Position numbers and translations under genes: made by a program. Shown piece by piece: positions 1-21,200 of a DNA stretch of 64,000 bases. The notes beneath the pieces were generated by a model. It searched no databases and had not been told where the DNA came from. It was given only the letters and a program-made list of their open reading frames with translations. Position 1 is the stretch's first letter, and each line of letters starts with the position of its first letter. The stretch is from NCBI GenBank assembly GCA_002269645.1, contig NIVC01000024.1, positions 1 through 64,000 of the forward strand, written 5' to 3'. Origin of the DNA: Macrostomum lignano. Lineage: Eukaryota.

Positions 1-1
1 T

Positions 2-186
2 TATTCAATCCATTTCTTGCTGTTCAATTGGAGAGAAAATGATTGTTGCACCCAAACCCCAATATATTATCCTTTAAATCAATATAGCGTTCAATCAATT
101 TATATTAGGATTGTAGATGAAAGCGATAGATTAATAAGTTTTGGTGGGCATCAATAACAATAATTTTACGTATAAAACAGGTTTAG
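2..186 (+). pseudogene. C-terminal fragment of Polinton minor capsid (penton-like) protein, frameshifted
   Basis: Stitching frames gives ...GEKMIVAPKP/PIYYPLNQYSVQSIYIRIVDESDRLISFGGH/ITIILRIKQV*, which resembles the P-x-Y-x-P...I-x-I-x-D-x-x-x-R-L-x-x-F-x-G...I-x-L-x-I-K end of Polinton mCPs. Confidence 0.55.
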
Positions 187-196
187 TACTGTAAAA

Positions 197-871
197 ATGG
201 GTAATCGAACAACATGTTCGCGTGCAAAGCACGATAATAATAATTTAATAAAAAAACAATCAGAAAAAGTTAAAAAAGCTGAAGATAATTACGAACTAGA
301 ACTAGCAAAATTAAGGCAGTTACAAGCTGATAAAATAAGAAAGGAATTGTTAAAACCCACACCTACGAAACTAACTAAAACCAAGAGTTTTCAGGAACAT
401 AAAATGACCATGACGTGGGATGATTTTAAACAAAGATATGGAACGGACACAACAAGCAATATCGAATTAACAAATTGGGCGAGGCAGTTAAAAATAAAAC
501 CATTCAGATGTGTTATGCGAGATGAGATCAAAGACTTACCACAATATGGATGTTTCATTGTTAATATTGAAACAACAAAAGAAAATGGTGTTCATTGGTC
601 AGCAGTTTATTCAAAACCAAAACTTGTTTATTTTTTTGATTCATACGCGCTTCCTCCGTTACAGGAAATAAAAGATAAATTTAATCATACTAAAAATCGT
701 TTATGTGGAGATCATCACGAACAATTTCAAACCTTTGATAAAAGTTATTGCGGGCAAGCGGCGTTGTATTTTTTATATAAAATTAATAACTCGAAGGATA
801 CCCCCGAAGTATTTAAGACTATCATGCAAAGCATGCGACCCTACGGGGCGATTTTAGACTCTATAAAATAG
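197..871 (+). CDS. Adenain/Ulp1-like cysteine maturation protease with N-terminal extension
   Basis: Intact 224-aa ORF with NIETTKENGVHW (His), YFFDSYALPP (Asp) and QFQTFDKSYCG (oxyanion Gln, catalytic Cys). Confidence 0.9.
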   Translation: MGNRTTCSRAKHDNNNLIKKQSEKVKKAEDNYELELAKLRQLQADKIRKELLKPTPTKLTKTKSFQEHKMTMTWDDFKQRYGTDTTSNIELTNWARQLKIKPFRCVMRDEIKDLPQYGCFIVNIETTKENGVHWSAVYSKPKLVYFFDSYALPPLQEIKDKFNHTKNRLCGDHHEQFQTFDKSYCGQAALYFLYKINNSKDTPEVFKTIMQSMRPYGAILDSIK

Positions 872-881
872 ACAGTAAAAA

Positions 882-2866
882 ATGTTATTTTCTGGAACAC
901 CCTCATGGAACGGAACAACAAGTAGTGGTGGTGGTGGCACATCTGGTGGAATAAGTGTTACATTTGGAGATAATCGATATATTAATGAGGATGAAGGTTA
1001 TAAAAAAACTGAATTGATAATAAATTAAATTTAAAAAGAAATGTTGCAGATTCCTATACCAAAACTCAAATAGATGATTCACTAAATCTGAAACGGAACG
1101 TAGCCGATTCCTATACCAAAACCGAAGTTGATAATTCATTAAATTTAAAACGCAATACAGCCGATTCTTATACCAAAACCGAAGTTGATAATTCATTAAA
1201 TTTGAAACGGAACGTAGCCGATTCTTATACCAAAACCGAAGTTGATAATGGATTAAATTTAAAAAGAGATGTAACTGATTCTTATTCTCGAACTGATTCT
1301 GATTCACGTTATGTTCAAACCACCGCAACCGGAAACCTAGATATGAGCAACAACCGAATTATAAATGTTTCAATTACAACTAGTGATTCAGTGGTTGATA
1401 AGAACTATGTCGATAATCAAGTTGCCACTCGTAGTGGTAATATTAATATGAATAATTTTAAATTAACAAATTTATTATTTGGAACAGAGAACGCAGACTC
1501 GATAACTCTAGGCCAAGTAAACGAGCGAGCTAATGCAACCGACGCCGATATTTTTACCACGCCGCTTACATCAAATACTTCAAATCCTGATGTTGTTCTT
1601 ACAGCATCTGAAAATGGCAACACAGCTTTTCGAGTTGGAGATGGAAGCCTTGCGACACAATGGTCACCAAATACCGGAACCACAACCAATATGGAAATTC
1701 AATTTGAATTTTTAGGTTATAATAGAAGAATATTTGAATTAAGAATTACAGGCAGTGAAACAATTGAGATACCCTCGGGTGGTCGGTTCGCGCAAAAAAT
1801 GTTGCTACCGATTCATGGACGACATTAACTACGTCGGGATCACCAGTTCAAGCAACATCATTTGCTCTATCTAATTTAACGACTAATTTTTGGAAATATT
1901 ATAGCGTATTCTTCCCAACTGGTGGTACCGGTACACAACCTATCGAGGTTCGTCAAATACAATTATTTGAACACCGTGTTGAAATTCAAGATCTTAATTG
2001 GCCAACTCAAATACTTTCTGCAGTTCCGCGAGCGTACGTAGATCAGCTAGCTACTCCAACATCAAATGGTAGAATGTCTGGAAGCGATAAAAATAAATTG
2101 GATGGAATACCTGCTATTGATGCGGCCTTGTTCGAACCAGTAATTTGCAATTGGTCTGGATATCAAAATCCAACAACCGCCGGAGATATATATCCAGTCG
2201 GTTCTTTAATTGCGATGCTTCTTATATCGATTATCAAAACGGGCTAGAATTACTCGTGAAACTTCTGGAGTAAGTGGTGCTTTACAATTCAATTTCACAC
2301 ATTTTCAAAATATATCTGCGTCTTTCTTTTTCCGAGTTGCTAATTCTACAGGAGATGGTGCAGATGCGGTTTGGTTTTATGCATATTGTCACGAACGTCC
2401 AACATCGGAATTTGGACTGGATTATCAACCGACGCCGGGCTGATAGTGTTTGCTAGTGAGTGGACTGATAGGTTTGGAGTTGTTTGGAGTAATAAAAAAT
2501 CAGACGGATCTACGGTTCGTAACGATGTTAGTAGTGATGCGGATCAAACTGTAGCCTATGCTAATATTGATAACGGATTGGCATTTATTTGAAGTTAATA
2601 TTTTAAATCAAAGGGTTTGGTACCGATTACAGTCATACAATGTTGCTGGTGATTCTTTTACCCTCATTGGACAGAACGTTTTCACATATGATAGTGGAAC
2701 TTGGGGAACTTTAGATAAATCTGGAACCCTTATGGGTTTTGGTGCTCGAACTGGTGGATCGGATGCTGCACATTTTATTCGTGGTGCAGTTGTATGTGGT
2801 AGTACGTCGTTTGGTTATGTTTTTCCCTCTACTGCTTATTTGGAAAAACCTCCTACTCAAATATAA
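882..2866 (+). pseudogene. Fibre/receptor-binding protein: repeat shaft, discoidin (F5/8C)-like domain, neck, L-type lectin-like head; several 1-nt frameshifts
   Basis: ATG at 882. Stitched product has LNLKRNVADSYTKTEVDNS repeats, GNLDMSNNRIINV...DKNYVD, AFRVGDGSLATQW...IEVRQIQLF, ATPTSNGRMSGSDKNKLDGI, and GDGADAVWF...GFGARTGGSDAAHFI. Confidence 0.75.
1024..1290 (+). repeat. 57-bp (19-aa) coding tandem repeat, about 5 units, fibre shaft
   Basis: TATACCAAA recurs at 1055, 1112, 1169 and 1226. Variation is largely at third codon positions. Confidence 0.9.
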
Positions 2867-2897
2867 AATATTTATATATAAAATATTTCTATATAAA

Positions 2898-3224
2898 ATG
2901 GCTTTTAGTAGAACTCCATCGATGCGGCAAAATAATGTTATTATTCCTATTCCTAAACAAGAATCAAATATAAAAACATTCAAATCTCATACCAAATTTT
3001 TATTTAGTACTGTAAATGTTCAGGATAATAAGAAGCTTCAAGAATTAATTAAGTTATTAAAAAATCATATTATACTTCAAGAGTTTTGGAAAATAGGATT
3101 TAAATGGGAGAAAAAAGAAAGAATAACTCCAATACAATACCTATTGAGCTCGGGACAAATCCCCAAAGAGCGCGGGGAATTCATTTTGGTGCTATTAAAA
3201 ATAGACGAGAATGTCGGTATCTGA
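2898..3224 (+). CDS. Hypothetical viral protein (108 aa)
   Basis: ATG at 2898 preceded by TATAAA. The ORF packs against its neighbours and overlaps the next start. No motif recognised. Confidence 0.5.
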   Translation: MAFSRTPSMRQNNVIIPIPKQESNIKTFKSHTKFLFSTVNVQDNKKLQELIKLLKNHIILQEFWKIGFKWEKKERITPIQYLLSSGQIPKERGEFILVLLKIDENVGI

Positions 3225-3866
3225 AGCAGATAAATGGGAACGCGACCGGTTCAACCAACGTAAAGGTCAGATGTTAAGTAATGTTGATCGTATTAACTAT
3301 GATTATGATTTATATGCTAAAAAAGTAAGAAGAGTTTCAAACCATATAAGAAATATGGACTTTTTCAATATTGGATTTGGAAGCTTATCAATGTTATGTG
3401 TAATCGTTTTAGGTATTTTACAATCTATTCCAACTCTTAATTTATCTCAATTATTTTTAGGTATTTCAATTGGCTCAATATCAGGTTTTGAATTGATCAG
3501 GAACTTATCAATACTTTTAGCAATTAAATTATATCTTAAAAAAAGAAAGGAAAAATATAAATCATTAAGAGATGTTGCAAGCAATATAAAAATCAATTAT
3601 ATTTATATGTGCAAAAAATATTGGATGACGGAGAGATAACGATTCATGAATTATCAACCGCGGTTGAATTATATGAAAAATATTTAAAAGATAGAAATAG
3701 AATTTTAGATGTTGAAACTTTTACCGATATGGAATTAAAAGAGTTGAGACTCGATAAACCCAAAGCTCCACCGATAGAAACATTAGGTATTTACGAACCT
3801 GAAACTATTGCTACTGGGGCACAAAGCCCGCGGTCAGGAAGTGCTGTAGAACTTAATGTTGTTTAG
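3211..3866 (+). pseudogene. Polinton-type two-TM membrane protein (about 218 aa), frameshift near 3610
   Basis: Two hydrophobic segments, then KKRKEKYKSL...(shift in A-run)...KILDDGEITIHEL, a motif I recall from conserved Polinton/adintovirus hypothetical proteins. Confidence 0.6.
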
Positions 3867-4346
3867 TTTATTTAATGCATATGTTATATATTCTTCCCAA
3901 AGTGGTAACTCTCTTCTGATCCTAGGTTTAAATTTTTTATCAATACATAAAAATTCCAATGACTTTTTCAATAACATTTCGTTAGGTATGTTACCTATCC
4001 TTATAAACTTTGTATTCTCTCGAATAAGAAAATTGAAATAATATCCAACTAAAATTAAAATCCTTTCGGAGTCTTTCGAACTTAATCCCTTTCCTTTATT
4101 TAAATGGAAAAAGTTATTATATAAATAAACATTATTTCCGGGAATTAAAATTGGATCAGAAATGTCTCTTGTAAGATTTCTTAAAATTGTGTTTTTAAAA
4201 TAGTAATATGAGTTTTCAATCTTTTTTGTTTTTTCAAATTGATATATTTTAGAACATGAATAACACATATGATATATATCTCCGTTTGCTGTTTGCCCTC
4301 TGTGCATAGTCACATTACATTTATTACAAACATAAATGTCTTTCAT
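3834..4346 (-). CDS. Hypothetical viral protein with N-terminal Zn ribbon
   Basis: CNKC-x18-CYSC at the N-terminus; 170-aa ORF with AAAAAATG start context. Confidence 0.55.
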   Translation of the reverse strand: MKDIYVCNKCNVTMHRGQTANGDIYHMCYSCSKIYQFEKTKKIENSYYYFKNTILRNLTRDISDPILIPGNNVYLYNNFFHLNKGKGLSSKDSERILILVGYYFNFLIRENTKFIRIGNIPNEMLLKKSLEFLCIDKKFKPRIRRELPLWEEYITYALNKLNNIKFYSTS

Positions 4347-4372
4347 TTTTTTGTTATTTTTTTAGATTAAAA

Positions 4373-4702
4373 ATGGAGAGCTGGTTCAAAACCGATTCTA
4401 ATGTGATTAATTATCTCACACCCAATATGTTGGAGAATAAAGAATATAATATTGTATGTTTGAGACAGGTTAAATTTATTGGACTTCAATCGATATTTTT
4501 ACAATTAGATGGGCAAAAAATTTTATGTCTAAGCGGAGATGATGTTAAAAATTTTCCTGTTTTAGTTATTAATAAACCTAAAGCGTTTGTTATGAAATAC
4601 AGCAACGAGGGTGGATTGCAATTTAAACTAAAACAAACAAATAATAAAAAGAGTGATAGGACTGTAAAATTGGCGGCTGTTTGGGAGGATGACCCCGAAT
4701 AA
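4373..4702 (+). CDS. Hypothetical viral protein (109 aa)
   Basis: Compact ORF divergent from the 3834-4346 gene, AAAAATG start. No recognised motif. Confidence 0.5.
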   Translation: MESWFKTDSNVINYLTPNMLENKEYNIVCLRQVKFIGLQSIFLQLDGQKILCLSGDDVKNFPVLVINKPKAFVMKYSNEGGLQFKLKQTNNKKSDRTVKLAAVWEDDPE

Positions 4703-4723
4703 GTTTAAATTTTTTATAAGAAA

Positions 4724-5083
4724 ATGGATACGATAAAAATCCTTATCACTAAAGAGCGTGAACTTAATGATATTAATAAAAAAATAAATATAATTATATC
4801 TCAGAAATATCATGAGTATGGGGACGATATGTTTCCCATCCGATATGAGATAGATAAAAGAAAACGTTTTTTAAGACAAGATATTGTTTATGCTGAAATA
4901 GTAATTGAAATTGAAATAGATAGATTGGTTAGAAAAATAAAAAAACTTAGGAAAAAAATAAAGGATTGTTTAAGTTACCCTGCCGACTGTGAGGATAATT
5001 GGTGCTCAATAATATATGAAATTGAAGTTAATGATTTGCTCAAACAATTACATGCTTTAGTTTTTTACAGACCCGATAAGTAA
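4724..5083 (+). CDS. Hypothetical coiled-coil viral protein (119 aa)
   Basis: Heptad-like K/E/I/L pattern, tight spacing with neighbours. Confidence 0.45.
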   Translation: MDTIKILITKERELNDINKKINIIISQKYHEYGDDMFPIRYEIDKRKRFLRQDIVYAEIVIEIEIDRLVRKIKKLRKKIKDCLSYPADCEDNWCSIIYEIEVNDLLKQLHALVFYRPDK

Positions 5084-5278
5084 TTTTTCTGTTAATCTCT
5101 TCCAGTTATTCAAGACTTTTTCCTTATTTAATTTTTTAAGTTCTTTTGGAAATGTTGAATAATAATTATCTACATGTATATCTTTTTCATATTCTAGAAA
5201 TGTATTATATTCACAATCACATTCGGATTCACAATCACAATCGTAATAATAATTATTTATTGCCGCCTTTGTATTCAT
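5057..5278 (-). CDS. Small hypothetical protein with Cys/acidic DCDCESECDCEY stretch
   Basis: 73-aa ORF whose start overlaps the reconstructed PolB end. Confidence 0.35.
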   Translation of the reverse strand: MNTKAAINNYYYDCDCESECDCEYNTFLEYEKDIHVDNYYSTFPKELKKLNKEKVLNNWKRLTEKLLIGSVKN

Positions 5279-8200
5279 TATATTTGCTTATTATATCTTC
5301 TTTTTGTTTTTTATCTTTTATCATATTTTTTATCTCTTCTTTTAAACCATATGGATATGTTTTAATTTTATCATCTAAATACTTTTATCATCAAATGGAC
5401 TTAATGTTTTTTTATCTGTCTCGATGACAAACATCTGATGCTTATCTGAATTTAATCGATATTGTGGAGCATGATAATTTTCAATTGTATTAAGGTAATC
5501 TAAAAGTACGTTTTTATAATCATCAAATGTTATCTTTTTTACTGCTGCTCTTGATACCCCTTTTATTTTTTTTACCTCTCTCTCCTGTCCTAAAACCTTA
5601 AATGCATAGCATTTTGATCTTATTGCTATAAACTCGGTTATGATTTTGCTATTTAATTCATCTTTCATTTTAAGTACAACTTTTTTATTTTGATCTGATT
5701 TTAAAGGATGGTTATCCGGATAGTCTGATGTGTCCAATGTATCCTTAATTTTTTCCATATCTTTATAGACTTCTGGTGTTTCAACCTTAAATACCAAACT
5801 GTCGGTGTCTGCATATATTGGATAGTTATCTGGCCATGTTTTATTTATAACATCATAATAGTATTCATACATTACTAGCTTTGCAAAAATCTAAAACAAC
5901 CATTCCAATAAATATTGGTTTAAGAAATTTTGTTGTTTTATTTCTCATATGAATACCCATAAAGTTATCATCAAATTTTATAAAGTCTTTAAAGTTAGGT
6001 TTTGAGAAATATTTCTTTGCTTTATCAATATCCTTTTCTAAATGGAATTGGGTTCTATCTCTAATATTTTCAACCGTTTTTCCATAAAAAGCATTATTCA
6101 TTAATTTCCAATAATCTTTCTCAAAATTTGTTTTTGACATCTGTCTCTGATTTGAATTAAAATCAATATATTTAGCTAACCAATCTTCCTCAATAAACGA
6201 TATTGTTCGATGTACTTTTGTAACTTTTAATCCCTGTTTTTCATAAAATTGTAGAAGCTTATAATGCACTACATAGTTTTTCTTATCATGTAAATTTAAT
6301 ATTAATTTTTTTGTTGCTAGATGTTTTGCATTATCTGCTTTAAGATAATCTTTTTGTGTTTGTGATAAATCATCTTCATTAACTGAACAATGCTCTGGAG
6401 CTAAAGGATATTTATATGTTTTTGCTTTTGCTTCCCGAGTATATTGCAAATCCACTTCTACGATACAGCCCCTTCCTTCGGGAATATTTTTGTAATAATC
6501 GGGGTCATCTTCCCATTGGAAATCAGCTATTGGTAATTTTTGTTTCATACAACCACCGTATAAATTGTTTGCATCTAGATATAATACATATGATGATTTT
6601 TCTTTTTTATTATAATTTGGAAGATACTTATTATTTACTTTAGTATATCTATCTCCTAGTACACCCGAGAATCCGCCGCGAATTCCTCTCTCAATCATTA
6701 ACAACATATCATGATCAGTTAGTAAATCAATCTTAACATCTGTATGTTTCAAACCACAAGCCCATGTTAATCCCGGTGCACTGAAACAATATGCGGGATC
6801 AATTTTAAAATTCTCATATGTATAATTCCTAAAGTTTTCAAATGCATCAGCTAATAGGAGAACATCTGCTTTAAGATATAGATTATGATAATCTTTAAAT
6901 GTTTTACAATTAAAGTATTTCCATACTTTTTGAGCGTGTTCATAATCCGATTCACTTATGTTTGTTTGTGATAATGTTGAATAAAACTTTTCAATTGGGG
7001 GTAATTCGGTATGAGAAAATACCTCTTTAGATGTTACATATTCATATGGGTAGATGCCCTTACGAGTTAATAGCATTAGTTCTTCCTCGGATAGTTTTTC
7101 TTTTTTGAAACGATTCAATAAGATTGGAAAGTTTTTCTTTACTATTTCTAAATCCCATGGTTTTGGAACTAATGATGAAACAACATTTGCTAAAGATGTT
7201 GATAAGAATCTCAAGGAATCTAGAAAAACTAGATGGGAGTATTTCTTACCATATGTTATTGATATGTAATTTTCTGATGTTTTAGGTAATATATTTATTT
7301 CATATTCATCCTTTCCTAAATGAAGCAATTCTCGAACTAAGAAATGAAAATCATATCCGGAACCATTATGAAAAAATACTGGTATTTCCTTACATCCTTT
7401 TCCTTCTTTTGCATTACATGATCTACATGCTGCCCCTCGATAATTTCCTGTTAGATGACAATGTTCTCGTATCTTATTATTCTTACTTAAATGTCTTTTG
7501 CACATAAAACAATTTGTTGCATTTTTATAATTGTCTCTATCCTTATTTGTCATATTAATATTTTTTGATAATTTATCATATTGATTTTGAATATATTCAA
7601 ATACATTTACTAATGATTCTGCCATGTGCTTAGCTGCATCATTACCGTGGTAAGTAATCATCCTTGATTTAAATATATGATCAGCTACAGAGTGTACATA
7701 TATACAATAACTATTCGGAAACTGTTGTGCCAATTTTTTTGTGCATTCACCGTCATCAGATACCGTCTGTGATTCTTTTAAGGGAACATTTGTTGCTTCA
7801 AAATCAGCATATATTACTATTGGTTTTTTAACTGCCATATAATGTTGTTGGAACATTAGGGTTGCATCTTCATAATCTGGCATTTTAGCAATAGTAAATT
7901 TGTGATCTAAACAAAATCGTTGATGATTTTTAAGAGCTGTTTCATCCTTTTTAAATGTGAAACAATTTCTACATAGTGGATATCTATTTCTATTTTCTCT
8001 TAAAAAGGAACTAATGTCCTTTATGTATATATAATGTGTTTCATTTTCGCGCTGCATGTACAAAAGATCGATTTGATCTGGTGCAGTTATATCAGTTGCT
8101 GGTTTTACTAAATAACAGTTTTTCTTATACCATTCTGGATCGACCTGCTGAATTTCTTCTAGATCTTCTGGTTCTTCAATTGTAAAAACATTAATATTTA

Positions 8201-9002
8201 AACCATTCATTTTTTCAATCTTATATATATCATCTATTGCTACTGGGTATGAGATGTTTTTCATTATTATTTCATCCTCATATTGTCTATAATTATATAT
8301 TTTATTAACATGTGATTTTACTTGTTTATGATATTTATGAATTAATAAACACCATAATAAACATTTATTATCTCTATTGTCTGGATTTATAATCATTGGT
8401 GATTTAAAGTATAGCTTCATATGTGATCGTCCTTTAAGAATTTCTATAGGTGCAATCTTTACTATTGCTGAATTACAGGATACAAATATAAACCCAGATC
8501 CGTTTTCTGTCATCTTATCTATCCATTCATCAAACTCAGCTTCTATTTGATCGAATTGATTGTTGTAATTTCCCATTGATAATAATGTTTTATATGATTC
8601 TTGTGAAAAGTTATTTATTACTTCAATTTCTGAATTTGCATTAAGAATATTTGGTTTTTTAAATTCTGTTTCAACTTCTATTTTATACTTAATTGGCTGT
8701 CGTTTGTTATTTGGCCTTATAGTATAATTGTTTAATATGGTCTTTAATTTATCTTTCATTTGTTTAAAATATTCTTTATAATTTGTATTTATATCTATAT
8801 CTATATATATTACTTCAGCTCCATTTTGTCCTTGTGGTTGGGGGTTATTAATATCATTTAATTGTCTTTCTAAACGTATCTCATTTTCTGCCCTAATTCT
8901 TGCTTCTATTTCAGCCCTATCGGCAATTCGTTGTGCATCGATTTGAGCTATTAATTGCGCTCTAAGTTCAGGGTTGTCGATTTGAGCTAAAATTGCTTCC
9001 AT
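5253..9002 (-). pseudogene. polB: Protein-primed family B DNA polymerase (pPolB), two 1-nt frameshifts (about 5885 and 5380)
   Basis: ExoI IYADFE, ExoII FHNGSGYD, ExoIII YLKADV; polymerase motifs YLDANNLYG, KLMNNAFYGK, YADTDS; C-terminal LSPFDDK(R)YLDDKIKTYPYG. Endonuclease VII-like Zn insert CFMC...REHCHLTGNYRGAACRSCN. Confidence 0.95.
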
Positions 9003-9085
9003 TTTATAGAATAAAATTTATATAATGTTTGAATTATTGATTTTTTAATTTTGTGTTTTTGGTGTCCAGACCCTCCCCCAGGAGC

Positions 9086-10072
9086 CTATTCGAGATCTGC
9101 TTTTGGTAATAGCAATCCATTGCCCATAACGTTTGAATTTAAGAAAATTCCTGAACCTGCTTTTGGTCTCATTTCGAGATATAATCCGCTTCCGTCGTGT
9201 TTTTCAATGATATTAAAATCTTTTCCTAATTTATTAAAAATTTTCTGAACAGCTGGTCTAAAATTGGATCCAATATTGTCAAAAAATCCTTTAGCTTTCT
9301 CACCCGTTTTTTCTAAAGTTTGACCAAATTCATGTAGTTTATCTGCGACAACTCCACTTCCTTGGGTTGTTCCTTTTAGTACCAAACCATTCCCGTGATT
9401 TGTTCCTTGCAAGAGTAAACCTTTTCCGGCTGCTAACCTAGCTTCTGCATTTCTTTTTTGCTCTGCTGTTGCTGAACTACTATTAATGGTATCAATAAGT
9501 TTCTGTTTGAATTGTGCGTCCTGCGTTATTTGCTGTCTTTGAAATTCGGCCTCTCTTTTAGCTTTTTCGTCCGCAGCTTTTTTGTCATTTACTGCTTTTG
9601 CAATTCCAGCTGCTCCGCCAGCAACTCCTCCAGCTGCTCCAATTCCTGCAAAAATTATTGGGAGCAAAGCTGCAAGGGGCAAGATTCCCCCCTGTTTCGC
9701 TCTTAACTCTCCTAGCTGTTTTACATTATCATGAATTCTTTTTCCGGCTAAACCGACTGCTCCAGCTGCACCAAGTCCTAAAAGAAGCGGTAGAATGGGT
9801 AGTAATCCGCCGTCCTTTTTAGTGTGAGTCTCCATTAAAAATTTCACATCGGAGTCTGTCAACCTATAATTTCTGCCGCGATTCTTAAAGGATATTGGCC
9901 TTCCTTCTTGTGCATATTTTGCTGCGAGTTTAAATGTATCGATGTCGTAGTCAAACTTTTTACCTAATCGATCCAATCTTTTTAACATTGTGTGGCTATG
10001 TTTATTATCATCTAGATCTAAAGTATCTACAATTTCTCCTATAAAATATAAGCGGTCGTTATCTGTGTCCAT
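9086..10072 (-). CDS. Putative virion core / membrane-active precursor protein (adintovirus-type)
   Basis: Intact 328 aa. GG followed by hydrophobic helices (GG-LLPILPLLLGLGAAG; GG-ILPLAALLPIIFAGIGAAGGVAGGAAGIAKAVN) and six GxG-hydrophobic motifs. Confidence 0.75.
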   Translation of the reverse strand: MDTDNDRLYFIGEIVDTLDLDDNKHSHTMLKRLDRLGKKFDYDIDTFKLAAKYAQEGRPISFKNRGRNYRLTDSDVKFLMETHTKKDGGLLPILPLLLGLGAAGAVGLAGKRIHDNVKQLGELRAKQGGILPLAALLPIIFAGIGAAGGVAGGAAGIAKAVNDKKAADEKAKREAEFQRQQITQDAQFKQKLIDTINSSSATAEQKRNAEARLAAGKGLLLQGTNHGNGLVLKGTTQGSGVVADKLHEFGQTLEKTGEKAKGFFDNIGSNFRPAVQKIFNKLGKDFNIIEKHDGSGLYLEMRPKAGSGIFLNSNVMGNGLLLPKADLE

Positions 10073-10082
10073 TTTTATATTG

Positions 10083-10481
10083 TTAAAATTTCTTTAATCC
10101 TTTTCCACCTTTAATAGTATTTAACATTTTATTAAAATCCTGAATATCTTTATTACTTATTGGTGCGCTTTTCGTGGGGGTTTCTGTTGGTTGTGCGGCT
10201 TGTGCCAGCTTTAAATCTTTTATTGCATTTATTTGTGAGAGGGTGTCGTTAAAATCTCTCAATTTCTTTAGTTCTTCTGCCGCTCTAGCTGCTTCAATTC
10301 CTCCTTTTACAGCATTTGTTATAGAGCCTGCTGCAGAGCCAGCTTGCCCTATAAGCCCCATATTGTCTTTAACAAAATTTGCTGCTGTTCCAACCACATC
10401 AAAAAGCCCCTCACCTCGGTATTCAACTGGGTCTCCTACCTGCAATTCATTCAGATTTTGCATATGTGTAACGTGTGTCAT
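10083..10481 (-). CDS. Putative virion core protein with amphipathic helix (132 aa from the first ATG)
   Basis: RGEG-LFDVVGTAANFVKDNMGLI amphipathic segment; C-terminal IKGG-KGLKKF matches the adenain (M/I/L)xGG|x consensus. Confidence 0.6.
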   Translation of the reverse strand: MTHVTHMQNLNELQVGDPVEYRGEGLFDVVGTAANFVKDNMGLIGQAGSAAGSITNAVKGGIEAARAAEELKKLRDFNDTLSQINAIKDLKLAQAAQPTETPTKSAPISNKDIQDFNKMLNTIKGGKGLKKF

Positions 10482-10520
10482 TTTTTGTTCTATTTTTAGT
10501 AACAGAAAAAAGATTGTCTG

Positions 10521-10618
10521 CATTCCATTTAGACCAGATTTTAGACCAAATTTTTGAAAACGAAAACCAAAACGATAGTCTAGTTTTGTTTGGTCTAAAA
10601 TCTGGTCTAAATGGAATG
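10521..10618. repeat. Perfect 30-bp inverted repeat with 38-nt spacer
   Basis: CATTCCATTTAGACCAGATTTTAGACCAAA (10521-10550) is the exact reverse complement of 10589-10618. Confidence 0.95.
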
Positions 10619-10700
10619 TTGGGTGGGTAGGTGAGCTGACTATAAATAGCTTCTATTCTTTCCGACCCTTCGCGCCTGCGGCGCGGGCAAGGGGTTATAG

Positions 10701-10971
10701 AGTAGTAGTATAGAAAAAGACGCTTCTAGATCAGACCTTATTTTAATGGCCGTTTGTAAGGTCTTAAGAGGGGGGACGCGAGGGGGGTGTTAGGGAGTGT
10801 TTGGAAGTGTTGGGAAGTGATTTTTATTGTTAGGGGTGATTATGGGTGATTAGATGTGTTAAGGGTGTTTAGATGTGTTTTTTTATTTACCCCCCGTGTC
10901 CCCCCTCTAGACCCTTAAAACGGTCATTAAAAAAGTGCTCTGGGTCTAGAAGCGTCTTTTTATATACTACT
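10701..10971. repeat. Polinton terminus plus a diverged internal inverted copy (about 100-bp arms)
   Basis: 10701 AGTAGTAGTATAGAAAAAGACGCTTCTAGA... aligns with the minus-strand read from 10971, AGTAGTATATAAAAAGACGCTTCTAGA... Homology extends through TTTTAATGRCCGTTT and GAGGGGGGAC. Confidence 0.85.
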
Positions 10972-12140
10972 GTGGATGAAGGCTTGAAGGGGGTCCCTGA
11001 GGACTGCGGGTGATGGTCCAGCCACAGTGGCAATAAAATCGGCCGCATAGCCGACCTTCTGAACTGGGTCCGAATGCGGGCTGCAAAGCAGCTCGTCCAT
11101 GACTAAATTCCAGAGGATCGGGCTGAGGACTCCACCTTGCGGTCCGCCTTTCTGGACTTACACGGGGCGGGAGTGTCCCAGGAAGTGCGAAGTGGCAGTA
11201 CGATGGGAGACCATGTACATGATCCAGCAGGTAAGGTGCTCGAGCGTGCCCCGGGATTCCAGGGCCCGCTTAAAGGCTTCAAAAAGCACATTATTGAAAG
11301 CACCATCAATGTCGAGGAAAAGGGACAGCGCGTATTCACTGCCAAGCACAGCGCTCTTGCTTGTCGACAATGGCGTGCAGCGCACTTTCGATGGAGCGTC
11401 CAGGACGAAAGGCGTGTTGATTGGGGGAGAGCGGGGAGTTCCTCAGCTCTACGAGGAGGAGGCGCCAGAGCACCAGCCGTTCCATCAGTTTGAGGAAGAA
11501 ATACGTCAGACTGATAGGGCGGTAAGCTTTGGCAGAATGATAGTCTCCCTTCCCTGGCTTAGTTATGAAGACTACCGTAGCCTCTTGCCAGGCTTTTGGC
11601 ACGTACCCGAGGGTAATGCTGGCCTTGAAGAGATTGCAGAGGAGGCCGAAAAACCTGTCATTTTTAACTGCCTCATAAAGGAAAGCAGGATAAATGTTGT
11701 CAGGTCCTGGTGACTTGAAAGGAAAGAAGGATTTTGCGGCGCGAGCCGTCCTTTCTTTAGTAATGATGGTCGAAGCCAGGATCTGTCCGCCCGGAGAGTG
11801 GTCCGGTGGGCCTAGCTGCTGCGCGGCACGTGGGAAAGAGCTGGTGAGCATGATGTCCAGCGATTCCCCAGGGTTCTCAGCGAGCCGGCCGTCCGGTCTT
11901 TTAATGACTGAGAGCTTTGACATTTTGTCGAGGGTGAGAGCCTTAACCACGCGTGAAGTAGGGCGGGTGCCTTCTAACTCCGCGCAGTATTGGCGCCATT
12001 TGTCGGACTTGGCTTTCCTGGTTTCACGCTTAAAGTCGCGGATCGCTTCTTGGTAGGCGGCCAGGTCAGCTGGGTCCTTGCTCTTGCGAGCTTTCCGCTG
12101 GAGGCACTTTGCCTTGCGCCGGAGGGATCCAAGAGCCAGG
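10972..12140 (-). pseudogene. Reverse transcriptase part of ORF2 (frameshift, stop, YAAD)
   Basis: Motifs as above, spread over ORFs 11336-12313 and 11158-11385, with an in-frame TAA near 11158. The frame runs ...LQAFIH directly into the Polinton terminus. Confidence 0.9.
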
Positions 12141-13279
12141 TTGTTGTTGAGCTGCGCCCGTCCAGTGCTTGTGCACTTTGCCCTTGTTTTTCTTGTTGTT
12201 ATTTTTGCATGCCACCCCGCCCCGTCCCCCGTCTCGCGCCCGGGGCCAGGGTTTGTGAGAGGCGTAAGCCTCAACCCTGGCCTAGCCTTTTCTGCACCCA
12301 GCCCCCTGTCCAATTCCTGTCCAATCTGGGTGTTGCCCTACCCCTCCCTCTTTGCCCCGTCTCACCCTGGGGCTACTCGCATTGGCTGGCTGGCTGATAA
12401 GCCGGCTGGGCCCCAGGGTTTGGCTCGCCCTCTCCTATCTGCCCCACCCCTTCCCCTAAAGGGGGGTGTAATATTGTACACCCCCCTTTTGTGTACAATA
12501 TTATTTAAGGGCCCGCCCTGAGCGTGCTGCGCCCCACGTGTTCGTATTACTTTCCGTTTCTTCGGTGTCATTCTGAGAACCTGCTCTCTGCAATCTGATA
12601 ATTCGTTTGCAAACCCCGTAATCGCTGGTTATCTGCTTCGCGCCGCATACCGAGTCTCGCCAATAAACGCTTCGCCAATCAAACCTATCTAAATATACTA
12701 AATCTCTAAGGTTTGTATGTTTGTCCATAAGTCTCTAAACGCAGAGGTTGTTGTGTTGAGAAAGTCAGACTGAATTTAGGGGTACACACGAACTTAGCCC
12801 AAGTTGGCCTATCGACTGGTATATTTATACTTATATATTCATTTAGCTGCGACAGATCAATATCGGAAAACAGATGTACATAGCATATGTACATATCTGC
12901 AAACCAACTACACAACAGAGGTGAGCGCGTGTTTTCGTCTTTCGGGTTGCTGCGTGGGGCCGGGAGCTGGTATGGACCTGGGACCGGTGAACACTCGCTG
13001 ATCTCAGGGTGGTCGGTCCGGCGAACTCTCGCCAAGCCGAGCCTTAGGGTGCGTAGGAGTAGCCGGGGTAGAGGGCTGGGACCGGGGTGTCTCAGGCGGG
13101 AGGACCCGAACCCTGACCCGTCCAGCGGCCATTAGGTCGAGACACAATACCTTTCTTGGTCCAGGGCTCCTGGAGTAGGATGATGCCCGGTTTCACGAAG
13201 TTTGCCACCTGCATCAGGTTGGTCGAAGCCGCGATGCAGTGGTGTAGGTTTAGCTGCAGGATGTCCACTCCGGGGAATC

Positions 13280-17082: not shown

Positions 17083-18295
17083 TTGAAGGCTGAGACCTGT
17101 CCTTGGACATCCATTACAAACAACCCTAATGACGTCACCTGCGCCGGCAGACGCGCTGTGATTGGCCGAGAAATCGGGTAGGGGCACAGCAGAGAGAAGT
17201 GATTAATGATGGGGGATTACGTAACAGGTGGGGAAAGCTTGGAGAGACTGGAGGTCGTGTAAAGCTGTCCCTCTCATGATTTATTTGAGGTGGGTGTTGG
17301 TGCGCGGGGGAGTGGGACGGGCGATAAGCATGCGCATGAGTCCCCATGCATGTACATGTAGCAACAGTACCTAACTACCCTTTAAAACTGCCCTTAGCAG
17401 GGCAACAAGACTGAATCCGACTCAAGGCTTCTCAATTCTTACTGTGGTCAGACATTTGTGCGAGTAGCGGTTCTGTAAGTGCACCTTGATTTACTGCACG
17501 ATCGATCAGCCTTGAGCTCGCACCTGCATATTACGCTCGTTTACCCAAAAAATGGCTTTGACTTATTATTGACTCAAAAGACAGTCTCTACAGTAAATAA
17601 GTTCCCCAGTGTTTACCATCGTGATCCCGTTCGTGTTGCTATGGCGAATGAATGAGACATTAAATTAAGCGCTGTTGATTTTGGTCCATCATTCGCAGTC
17701 GCTTGGCTTGCTTAATGCAAATACTCCAATATTTGCACGATTAATTCTCGTTTCTTTTCAGGGGTATTGACTCCGATAGGGAAAATGGATAGATTATAAA
17801 GCTTTAAACTATAGCCATTGGCTCATGGCATTGTAGCTAATAGTTTAGTATATCACATTTTATCAACGGATTGCATTTTACTGGACTTAAAAAACCTCTT
17901 AGACATTTTGCTGACGGCTATGACCACTGATCGACTGCATGGCTGAATCAGGTAAGAATTTAAGAGCTCAAAAGATTACATATTTAAATAGTTTATAACA
18001 GTTCATACGGAAACACAAACGGTATGGTATAGAAGTGGCCAATCGAACACCAAAACTTTATGACACTAAAAAAAACTAAATGCAGTTATAGTTATAAGCA
18101 TCCACTGAACCTAGCTGAAACTGAAACTGAAACTACGATACATTCAAAATGGTGTTCTTTCTTACTGGAACTCGCAATAGCCATTGCTACAGTAGATAGC
18201 TCAATAGCAGCTGTGCTGTGAAAATAATTGAAGCCCAACCGACATCTCAATTGGTAGAGCCGCACAGCCCCTCTACCATCAGCAGCTGCTCCCAG

Positions 18296-21200
18296 ATGCT
18301 CCTACGCCAACAGCTCAGCCAGTTCGCCACGGAGACAACCGCCCACGGTTTAAATCGCCTAGTGACGGGTAATCGACCAACTCACCTGAAATTTTTGTGG
18401 GCTCTGGCTTTTCTCGCGGTGTCCGCACTATTTGGATATTGCTTATTCAACTCGGCCGTGAAATACGCTAGCGGGGCACACAGCACATCTCTGTACAAGG
18501 ACTATATGAACTTTGTTTTTCCCGACGTGTACATCTGCCCATGGAACATCTTCTCCGGTAGCTACTCGATGAGCTTGAACGCAACTGAGGCCGAATACCT
18601 AAGATCTAGAATTGATCTACTGATGAATCAGTTTGAGCCTCATTACAAAGACATCTATGTACTGATGCGAGCTGTGCTGAACTCGCTACCAATTAAACTG
18701 GTTGCAGACTTGCTGGGCCATCGCACTGAGCAAACAGTCCTGTGGGCTATTGCAGTCAACAATCCACTGGCTCCTCTGACAGTTGAGCCGTTCTACTACA
18801 CAAACGGAATGCGTTGCACCAAACTGGTGCTGTCGGATGCTTTAAGAGATGCTCTGAGAGATCCAGCAAACGCTGTGCAATTCTACTTGAGCGTCGACAG
18901 TCACATGCTGCAGTTTCCCAGTGATCTAAATAACCAGATATTCTACTCCAGAGCTAATAGCAACGCAACCGTGACGCCAACACAGTGGAGCTATCTTGAC
19001 GGCCTGGATTACATGAAGCCAGCCGCTCTGAGGCTGTTCTTAACGGAGCCGGGGACTTATCCCAGTGAGCTGAGCTCTGCCTCGGTGCTGCTCAGGCCCG
19101 GTACATTCACTGAGCTGGGCATCTCAATGCTCCAGACCGAGATGGACCACAAGATGCTGACTGACGAGTGCTTGCCAGATGAGGGACAGGTCCGCTTTTA
19201 CAACCCTTACTCGCCTGACCAGCCCTATAGCAGCCGGTACAGCTACGACTACTGCTATTACGATGGTGAGTTTATTTTGTTTTATTCGGAATGAAAATTC
19301 AGACATAGGAGACAGATCCAGTGTTCATCTTTTGATATGTTGTGCCTTTCTTATTGCTCTATCGATATTCATAAAGCTTTTTGTTTAAAGAATTAGGATT
19401 CTATGTTAATTTTTATTCTACGTACATTTCCTGCACCTAACAATCATAAAATGCATGGCACAGCTCCAATATTTGGTTTTATGAATCTATTTTATCATCT
19501 CTGTTACAAATATTTGTTACACAGTCAGCTAAGAATGATAAAATAGACTCAGAAAAAATAGAGCTGAGCCGTGCCATTTTAATGGTTTTTAGGCTTTAGT
19601 TTTTAGTTGTAATGCTTAACATAGAATTTTCATGTTAAATTGGTCTTGTCATTATTTTAAACGTTTTTTTCAAGTGAACAGACCAATTTAACATGAAAAA
19701 TCGATCAATGAGTCGTTAGAGCAGCATGTGAGGCACAAAATAGTGTGATTAGAACTTTCTCTGACCCTGTTGAGAGACCCAATCACTGAATGTTCCTGTC
19801 GCGCTAGGACGAGCTTCTACTGTCGACATCAGAGCAAGCGATCTCAACTTATTTTCATTACAAATTTCGATGCTAACTTAATTATTAAAAGCTTAAAACA
19901 ACTTGAGTTGGTATACTCTAATGAACGCATAGCGATGAAACATAAGTGCACTATCAATCAAACTATGCACCGAAGAAAATCAACTTCTTTCAACTTGAAT
20001 TGTCCATGGCGACCAGTGTTGGGCAAAGTTCCGGCACTTCCGGCACTTACTTTTTTTAAGCGGCACTTTTTCCGGTTTTTTAGAATGCCGGACTTGGGTA
20101 ACGGAAGTTACTTTTTAATAAGTCCGGTCCTCCGGTACTTGAACATGAAATTTTAGGTGCCAAACAGTCAATTTAGCACTAAAATATTTCCTTAAAGCAC
20201 AAAACTTTCATCAAAATACTCGTATTACAATTATAAGAAGGTAAAACAAGAGATGGTCCTAAGTTCGTGTGGTTTTTCTTTTTTAGGTTCATAGCGGATC
20301 ATAGAATCATAGAATAAAGTAATTATTGGTAACTACTAATGCTTAACAAGACACTTTCAAAACAATGAACATCCTTTAACAATTCCTTGCAAGTTTTCTA
20401 ACAAGGATAACTAGCAGTACATCAGGAAGCTACACTCGTGATTCGTGGAAAATATTTTGAAGGCCGATTTCTTTATTTAGATGTTCGTGCAGGACGACAC
20501 GAGTGATGTATTCTAAGAGAGTTTTTTGACTTTTAACTCTGAGGCTAATTATAATTTTTTAATTGCAGAGCATGGCACTAATTAAGTTATTTATCTTTTC
20601 TCTTAATTGTTAACTGACATTTCCAAGGCTGCCAGAAGATTATCATTGATTCTAGATGAGTCAGCATTCCAAAAGTATACTTACAATACTGTAAAAGTAT
20701 AGCTGCTACTACAGCACAATACCATGTAGTAGGGCGACGAGAATTACTCAAAAAATTAAAAATCGTCTGGAGTATTCTACTAATTGTGACACACCTTTCG
20801 GACAAAAAATTATCTCCATACTTCTGAAGATTCAGAATCAAAATTTGAAAATCGGCCTCCAAATTTTTTTCTACGAATTGCGAGTGTAGCGTCCTGATAT
20901 ATCAGATACTGATATTCCTTGTTTTGTAAAGGTTTTGTTTGTTTCCTTAAATTTTGGATGCGATAATAATAAAAATATTATGTTGCATCTTTATTTGAGG
21001 AATAACAGCATGTATAACTCTCGGCTAACACATACTTTTTGTTTTTTTTACAAAGACATGTTTAAACACTTTTTAATTGGCGGTTATTTAAAATTAGAAA
21101 GGACCGGTAGTGGAAGTACCGGAAGTTCCTTTTTATAAAAAGTACCGGTACCGGAACAAGTGCCGGAAGTTACTTTCCTTGGAACCGGAAGTTACTTTCT

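Follow-up and report, generated by a model that had tools for sequence, protein, structure and literature searches.

An internal inverted repeat with sequence exchange between its arms in the terminal inverted repeats of a Macrostomum lignano Polinton

The window analysed here, a stretch of 64,000 nucleotides at the start of Macrostomum lignano contig NIVC01000024.1 (G000:C24), begins inside a mobile element: positions 1–10971 are the right half of an integrated Polinton, and the other half lies on a second contig (G000:C10:1-8655). The window half encodes a protein-primed family B DNA polymerase (pPolB) with an endonuclease VII-like insertion (5865–9002, minus strand; PF02945, E = 1.5e-06), whose C-terminal part sits in a separate frame (5375–5872) and matches a PHROG DNA polymerase at E = 6.8e-04. 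Profile searching gave no direct PF03175 match in the window polymerase; its atlas neighbours carry PF03175 together with PF02945 at scores of 0.95–0.97. Open frames of this gene, which occupies two frames here (5375–9002), vary widely among copies, through assembly error or decay. The other half of the insertion supplies an rve integrase (L200; E = 8.4e-07, slightly below the curated cut-off) and a Pox_A32 packaging ATPase (E = 8.4e-07, above the cut-off). We take an open reading frame at 197–871 (plus strand) to be a probable adenain-type maturation protease on the basis of a His/Asp/Gln/Cys pattern recognized by eye; it has no Pfam protease match, and profile searches gave no family match for the candidate protease and capsid open reading frames present in the element. 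With a pPolB, an integrase, an ATPase, a 308-bp terminal inverted repeat (TIR; 100–1500 bp in Polintons) and a 6-bp target-site duplication verified at the empty site (5–8 bp in Polintons), the element is a Polinton/Maverick whose protease and capsid labels are unconfirmed.

Loci related to this end fall into two classes: some continue inward with the window's own interior, and the rest match 10664–10971 only and share another interior. Because these left-end loci match exactly that interval and no further, the TIR common to the left and right ends is 308 bp long (10664–10971). The original prediction had called for the left terminus to be inspected for the same double end; it is present on C10, where the partner-end TIR is 100% identical to that of the window, and C10:1-1908 overlaps window positions 1–1902 at 99.4%. 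On three uninterrupted LINE copies, the host flank of C10 and that of the window adjoin and have 6 bp in common, identifying GTGGAT (10972–10977, plus strand; partner end L004) as the target-site duplication, which occurs once at the empty site. The insertion target was a host LINE reverse transcriptase region (10972–12313, minus strand; RVT_1, E = 2.8e-06, below the curated cut-off; 40 matches at 93–100%). Further into the host sequence, the window also holds a fragment of an amiloride-sensitive sodium channel (ASC) gene at 18218–19294 (E = 2e-18).

The outer 268 bp of the TIR form a fold-back, and the TIR extends 37–40 bp further inward than this unit. As predicted from the letters, ACTACT closes the element at 10971, and AGTAGT(AGT) begins in inverted orientation at 10701/10704. 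The outer arm (10890–10971, plus strand) is the true terminus, where every full-length copy ends and flanks differ. The inner arm (10704–10785, plus strand) is an inward-facing copy of the terminal 82 bp and was never found as an integration end, none of 116 bordering host DNA; it is preceded by an extra AGT (10701–10703, plus strand) that sequence and fold place outside the pairing. The predicted identity of about 80% was close to the 82.1% found over 84 alignment columns, and the predicted arm length of about 100 bp had to be shortened to 82 bp; the outermost 27 bp match at 26 of 27 positions. Between the arms, where G-rich repeats had been noted, lies a G/T-rich loop with short direct repeats (10786–10889, plus strand), predicted to be unstructured, which has a fixed orientation, holds no C across 95 nt (10790–10884) and has a tip-strand G+T content of 0.80–0.84 in 100/100 copies. 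The 308-nt TIR strand folds at −73.9 kcal/mol (z = −13.8; 0/100 shuffles as good), with z = −13.8 and −12.7 against shuffles for the two strands. A small GC-rich hairpin (10666–10693, plus strand) marks the inner boundary of the TIR; every type-A variant retains it, as does the type-B TIR described below, and the fold, the variants and two loci with a tip overrun (L077) and a deletion (L037), both of which terminate at its stem, make it a candidate polymerase brake and crossover point. The fold-back is thus one TIR with an internal inverted repeat, and the generalization that Polintons have one TIR at each end still holds. The absence of a 6-bp duplication around the 270-bp unit, seen at the outset, is accounted for because the unit is not an element: the duplication, GTGGAT, belongs to the complete Polinton and flanks it beyond its outer tips.

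From 129 loci we retained 100 unique full-length TIR copies, dropping 29 as duplicates by flank, partial or divergent. These comprise 49 left ends and 51 right ends (36 window-like and 15 of two other types), and the fold-back is present in 100/100, at both ends. Six same-contig pairs have matching 6-bp duplications at their outer tips (on C110, C326, C1530 and C3967, in one C4439 element and in the C349 subfamily element) and four have mismatched ones (C632, C904, C4661 and the other C4439 element). For 6 of the 8 mismatched ends the hexamer matches one on another contig, as expected when assembly joins through a near-identical repeat, and no partner hexamer was found among the loci fetched for L062 and L114; cross-contig pairing was verified by flank for the window insertion alone.

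Comparison of these copies reveals sequence exchange between the arms. Among matched positions, six of 14 inner-arm variants have their complement among 15 outer-arm variants (expected 1.7; permutation P = 0.00095), and 5 of 10 remain mirrored after adjacent changes are merged (P = 0.0039). Two mirrored substitutions lie in cis (L096/L097; L063/L068/L108): in the first case both outer-arm carriers of the change also carry the inner change, and in the second all three inner carriers also carry the outer one, which amounts to two events among related copies. Recurrent mutation could explain the other three mirrored pairs, none of which lies in cis. In two independent insertions (L044; L063/L065), outer sequence has taken the place of about 45 nt within the inner arm, and at 10713/10962, the sole mismatch in the outer 27 bp, all four tip combinations occur in 38, 50, 9 and 2 of 100 copies. 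One end (L077, L183; G000:C2245:9559) continues for 19 nt beyond the tip with sequence complementary to the interior, stops at the GC hairpin and then enters host DNA; this is a single case, its partner end was not found, and host repair or an assembly error could produce such an overrun. Inverted loops were found in 0/100 copies. Flip/flop of the 268-bp unit, suspected from the tip patterns, was rejected, the patterns being single-base exchanges beside a fixed loop. The arms exchange sequence in both directions while loop orientation is kept, and only the outer tip is integrated. Arm divergence, originally read as evidence against a recent snap-back, is not simple decay: the arms have been repeatedly re-matched, and a 2-nt bulge persists.

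The pattern of exchange bears on the form of the DNA in which it took place. As described in the available text of PMC8604942, intramolecular template switching homogenizes the arms of an inverted repeat, and an intermolecular route is needed for spacer inversion; by that mechanism, homogenized arms without inversion point to intramolecular switching and therefore to a folded single strand. Left and right TIRs are likewise homogenized (2.5 versus 6.3 differences). G·T mismatches favour the 3′-tip strand (25 versus 10, P = 0.017), but they lie in related contexts and this strand has a G/T-rich composition; by folding energy it is preferred in only 9/16 variants. We also considered that the inner copy might store a dinucleotide lost at integration; this idea is weak, as GT precedes 19/19 type-A inner arms but not that of L163, and 5/8 in the more distant family at 57% polymerase identity.

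The same terminal geometry recurs across variants and in one more distant family. A polymerase search returned 127 scored matches, from which the samples were 20 close-family, 11 57%-family and 6 53%-family stretches; those without a located tip (6/20, 3/11 and 2/6, respectively) were left out. All 14 close relatives with a located tip have arms of 80–89 bp with 79–89% identity. Across 19 distinct arm pairs, own arms match at 26.0/27 positions versus 22.8/27 for crossed arms (0 of 100,000 permutations). Loops of 82–136 nt contain 0–2 C in 16/16 variants, and the bulge after position 27 is retained in 15/16. A type-B TIR, represented by 17 exact matches and by 12 loci that include 5 end pairs whose duplications match, is joined to the same interior; past the GC hairpin its sequence is unrelated, yet it too folds back, with its last 8–10 terminal nucleotides unpaired. 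In a family at 51–57% polymerase identity, a 100-nt hairpin of unrelated sequence has 26/27 positions paired and matched changes in 8/8 located tips. A 3′ end flush with the stem is predicted in type A and the 57% family, not in type B. The inner copy is absent from 4/4 located tips of a 53%-identity family. Because this family and a palindromic element described below lack the inner copy, the fold-back is unnecessary for integration and is not needed by all Polintons. No relatives outside the genome were found in viral contigs or metagenomes by searches that are insensitive, and generic end-pattern scans of 110 loci (30/30 and 80/121) gave none above 23/27, the top ones being simple repeats.

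Several further features of these ends and families were observed. The TIR beyond the GC hairpin is swappable, with type-B ends on the same left and right interiors (L134–L145; for example, G000:C2506:60227-77710), and at least three right-end sub-terminal types exist. An 8-kb subfamily element with a 6-bp duplication (G000:C349:312303-320328; L039, L046) has a left TIR from which the inner tip and GC hairpin are gone through a short deletion. A link between the fold-back and the endonuclease VII-like domain was rejected, the motif being present in all three families (8/8 stretches), including the one without a fold-back. In the 57% family, which has the short near-perfect terminal hairpin, the polymerase exonuclease motifs of L188 and L190 look degenerate by eye relative to the other two families; both copies are broken. 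Outside the TIR and at the right end only lies a separate invertible segment (10521–10618) with 30-bp perfect arms and a 38-bp spacer that is inverted in 8/35 typed unique right ends. It is directly upstream of an open reading frame at 10083–10523, whose promoter it could switch.

Polinton tips are also found on an otherwise distinct replicon. The C1500 element (G000:C1500:203854-219354; L120, L121, L193, L194, L201) is a 15.5-kb palindrome with 99.96% identical arms and a centre of about 830 bp, and contains long tandem arrays and a 985-amino-acid open reading frame without a Pfam match; Rep_trans (32% of a cluster) is among the atlas leads for this frame, which score below 0.9. Both ends of the element carry the outermost 125 bp of the Polinton TIR, and a 6-bp duplication, TAAGTA, flanks them. 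The element was found as a single full copy, with a decayed relative on C578, and is a candidate passenger integrated by the Polinton integrase.

We propose that the unit is an intrinsic part of the Polinton TIR, a fold-back that serves as its own template and caps or repairs the tip, a reading to which we assign a probability of roughly 55%. The arm exchange itself very probably proceeds by intrastrand template switching on a single strand, as in protein-primed strand-displacement synthesis: the 3′ end may fold onto the inner arm, or a nascent strand may copy its own other arm. According to the available part of PMC11886824, whole single strands are displaced during protein-primed replication, and what becomes of them is debated. 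The odds are slightly in favour of the structure having been kept as a free-end cap and as a local template from which a trimmed or damaged tip is rebuilt, run-on being limited by the GC hairpin. On the displaced strand the 3′ tip would pair 270 nt away, enabling the tip to be rebuilt without the far end 17 kb distant; the C-free loop would prevent competing pairing, the GC hairpin would halt run-on synthesis, and initiation itself would remain protein-primed. In phi29, an origin that carries a 5′ single-stranded overhang works poorly (PMC4150772), so the fold-back is unlikely to be an origin by itself. The unpaired last 8–10 nt of type-B ends fit a cap, not tip repair. The sequences behind this reading are assembled contigs, and no extrachromosomal DNA was seen.

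A first alternative, which we consider rather unlikely, is that the fold-back is a neutral relic of one ancient snap-back that duplicated the tip, with template switching keeping the arms alike and no selected role. Template switching alone makes inverted-repeat arms co-vary and can homogenize them without selection, as set out in the available portions of PMC8604942 and, for co-variation, PMC8794818, and matched arm changes therefore do not prove selection. The absence of the fold-back from the 53% family and the C1500 element, and the rearrangement of the nearby 98-bp segment, are also consistent with neutrality. However, the same terminal geometry is built from three unrelated sequences, loops stay C-free even as their sequence and length turn over, the bulge persists despite full conversions, and neither loop nor arm has been lost in any of the 100 copies, although the searches favoured intact copies.

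A self-priming hairpin telomere, in which the 3′ end primes synthesis on the inner arm in the manner of a parvovirus or a virophage/Polinton-like virus (PLV), is unlikely, including in an asymmetric variant. The original prediction of an intrinsic hairpin telomere holds as far as the fold-back goes, which is present in both TIRs and in 100/100 copies, and is disfavoured for resolution by simple hairpin transfer, as no flipped unit was found. An asymmetric resolution route, as in minute virus of mice, could avoid flips. Such priming would be served by a 3′ end that is flush with the stem in type A and the 57% family and has the rest of the genome as template; the L077 end exhibits an extension of this kind, these tips also terminate the C1500 element, itself a 15.5-kb palindrome, and the model has been proposed elsewhere (bioRxiv 10.64898/2026.07.28.741278). 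Against it, hairpin transfer yields flip/flop ends, according to the available text of PMC11575299, and here 0/100 loops are inverted and 0/116 inner-type arms lie at a tip; in addition, the element encodes a protein-primed polymerase, and the 3′ tip is unpaired in type-B ends.

More doubtful still is an excision or resolution signal, in which the fold-back or a cruciform at the provirus–host junction would be cut, with the bulge as the site, by the integrase or the endonuclease VII-like domain. In its favour, the stem mimics the terminal duplex beside a host flap, the bulge is conserved, the polymerase contains a PF02945 domain, and Polinton exit is modelled, in the available text of PMC4196379, solely as a racket of whole-element TIRs. 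The nuclease motif, however, also occurs in the family without a fold-back, and such insertions have been read as homing endonucleases or inteins (PMC11161782).

Very improbable is the other proposal made at the outset, that the unit is a 270-bp non-autonomous mini-Polinton, a satellite fused to or replacing the end. The unit does start AGTAGT and end ACTACT, variants that share an interior can exchange the part of the TIR outside the GC hairpin, and its features are MITE-like: short, non-coding, with inverted ends resembling those of an autonomous partner. A genome-wide exact-match search, carried out as proposed for free-standing copies with their own duplication, found neither these nor flipped units: 0/116 exact inner arms border host DNA and 116/116 have the element's own A five bases upstream, a test that a free or flipped unit would fail three times in four. 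The single free-standing candidate proved to be the end of a subfamily element. Within the sensitivity of exact matching, then, the unit was not found free; it has no duplication of its own, occurs at both ends within a TIR that continues 37–40 bp inward, and in each variant has an inner tip that follows that variant's own outer tip. Last, an assembly artefact or one-off rearrangement, to which a contig beginning inside a collapsed repeat and the four mismatched same-contig end pairs might point, is excluded for practical purposes because 100 unique copies with different flanks carry the structure at both ends and single contigs from two other studies (X1 and X2, 2 of 4 sequencing runs) span 10664–10971.

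The fold-back can be set beside the closest known terminal structures. As far as the available text of published descriptions goes, the element resembles other Polintons/Mavericks in its 100–1500-bp class of TIR, 6-bp duplication, short terminal tandem repeat, single-stranded intermediate, pPolB with a nuclease insertion, rve integrase and A32 ATPase. In the racket model, pairing is between the opposite ends of the whole element (available parts of PMC4196379, citing Kapitonov and Jurka, and bioRxiv 10.1101/2023.08.22.554363), whereas here each TIR also self-pairs over 82 bp. Literature searches found no description of a self-folding TIR in animal Polintons, with subscription papers and repeat databases thinly covered and a prior mention possible; the available portions of PMC11296320 and bioRxiv 10.1101/2022.07.28.501842 contain nothing on one. 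The nearest precedent comes from a 2026 preprint (bioRxiv 10.64898/2026.07.28.741278), which describes palindromes of about 52 nt in the TIRs of endogenous virophages/PLVs of Halocafeteria seosinensis. In its available text, every complete copy of a subtype likewise has such an inverted repeat inside the TIR, adjoining the target-site duplication; the palindromes were assigned a candidate hairpin-priming role and occur mainly with non-pPolB replication genes. Our case differs in being an animal pPolB element with imperfect 82-bp arms (82%) and a 104-nt loop, and in the population evidence for arm exchange and fixed orientation; the screen used there (gap limit 10, at most 4 mismatches) would miss this fold-back because the loop is about 100 nt.

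Comparison with other linear replicons is subject to the same limit of available text. The parvovirus (AAV) telomere likewise folds back at the terminus and offers a 3′ end that can prime (PMC11575299), but there are no flip/flop isomers here, a protein-primed polymerase and an integrase are present, and no Rep nuclease was found among the Polinton open reading frames scanned. Streptomyces telomeres share a folding single-stranded 3′ end, a terminal-protein system and co-varying stems (bioRxiv 10.1101/2025.10.14.682034); they carry several short Tap-bound palindromes and patch lagging-strand ends, in contrast to the one long stem-loop of a strand-displacement replicon. The adenovirus/PRD1 panhandle also pairs terminal repeats on a displaced strand, and is invoked for initiation and for restoring homology (PMC11886824), but it requires both genome ends, whereas the fold-back stem forms locally.

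Polinton end copying and chromosome exit are known from models only. The roughly 100 near-identical copies amount to a sequence record of single-stranded folded intermediates and count against simple hairpin transfer; they also extend the terminal palindromes of protist virophages/PLVs to an animal pPolB element, in a long-loop form. The structure is short enough to be testable with oligonucleotides and purified polymerase. More tentatively, and with the chances clearly against it, many animal Polintons may carry an exchangeable end module, composed of a GC brake, an inner tip copy, a C-free loop and the true tip, that the viral polymerase would use to rebuild ends after chromosomal release or that marks the release junction. 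Such a module would have been missed elsewhere because TIRs have been scored end against end only. If this reading is true, the module would supply the missing step from provirus to free linear genome, and its tip could be borrowed for integration by unrelated replicons, the C1500 palindrome among them.
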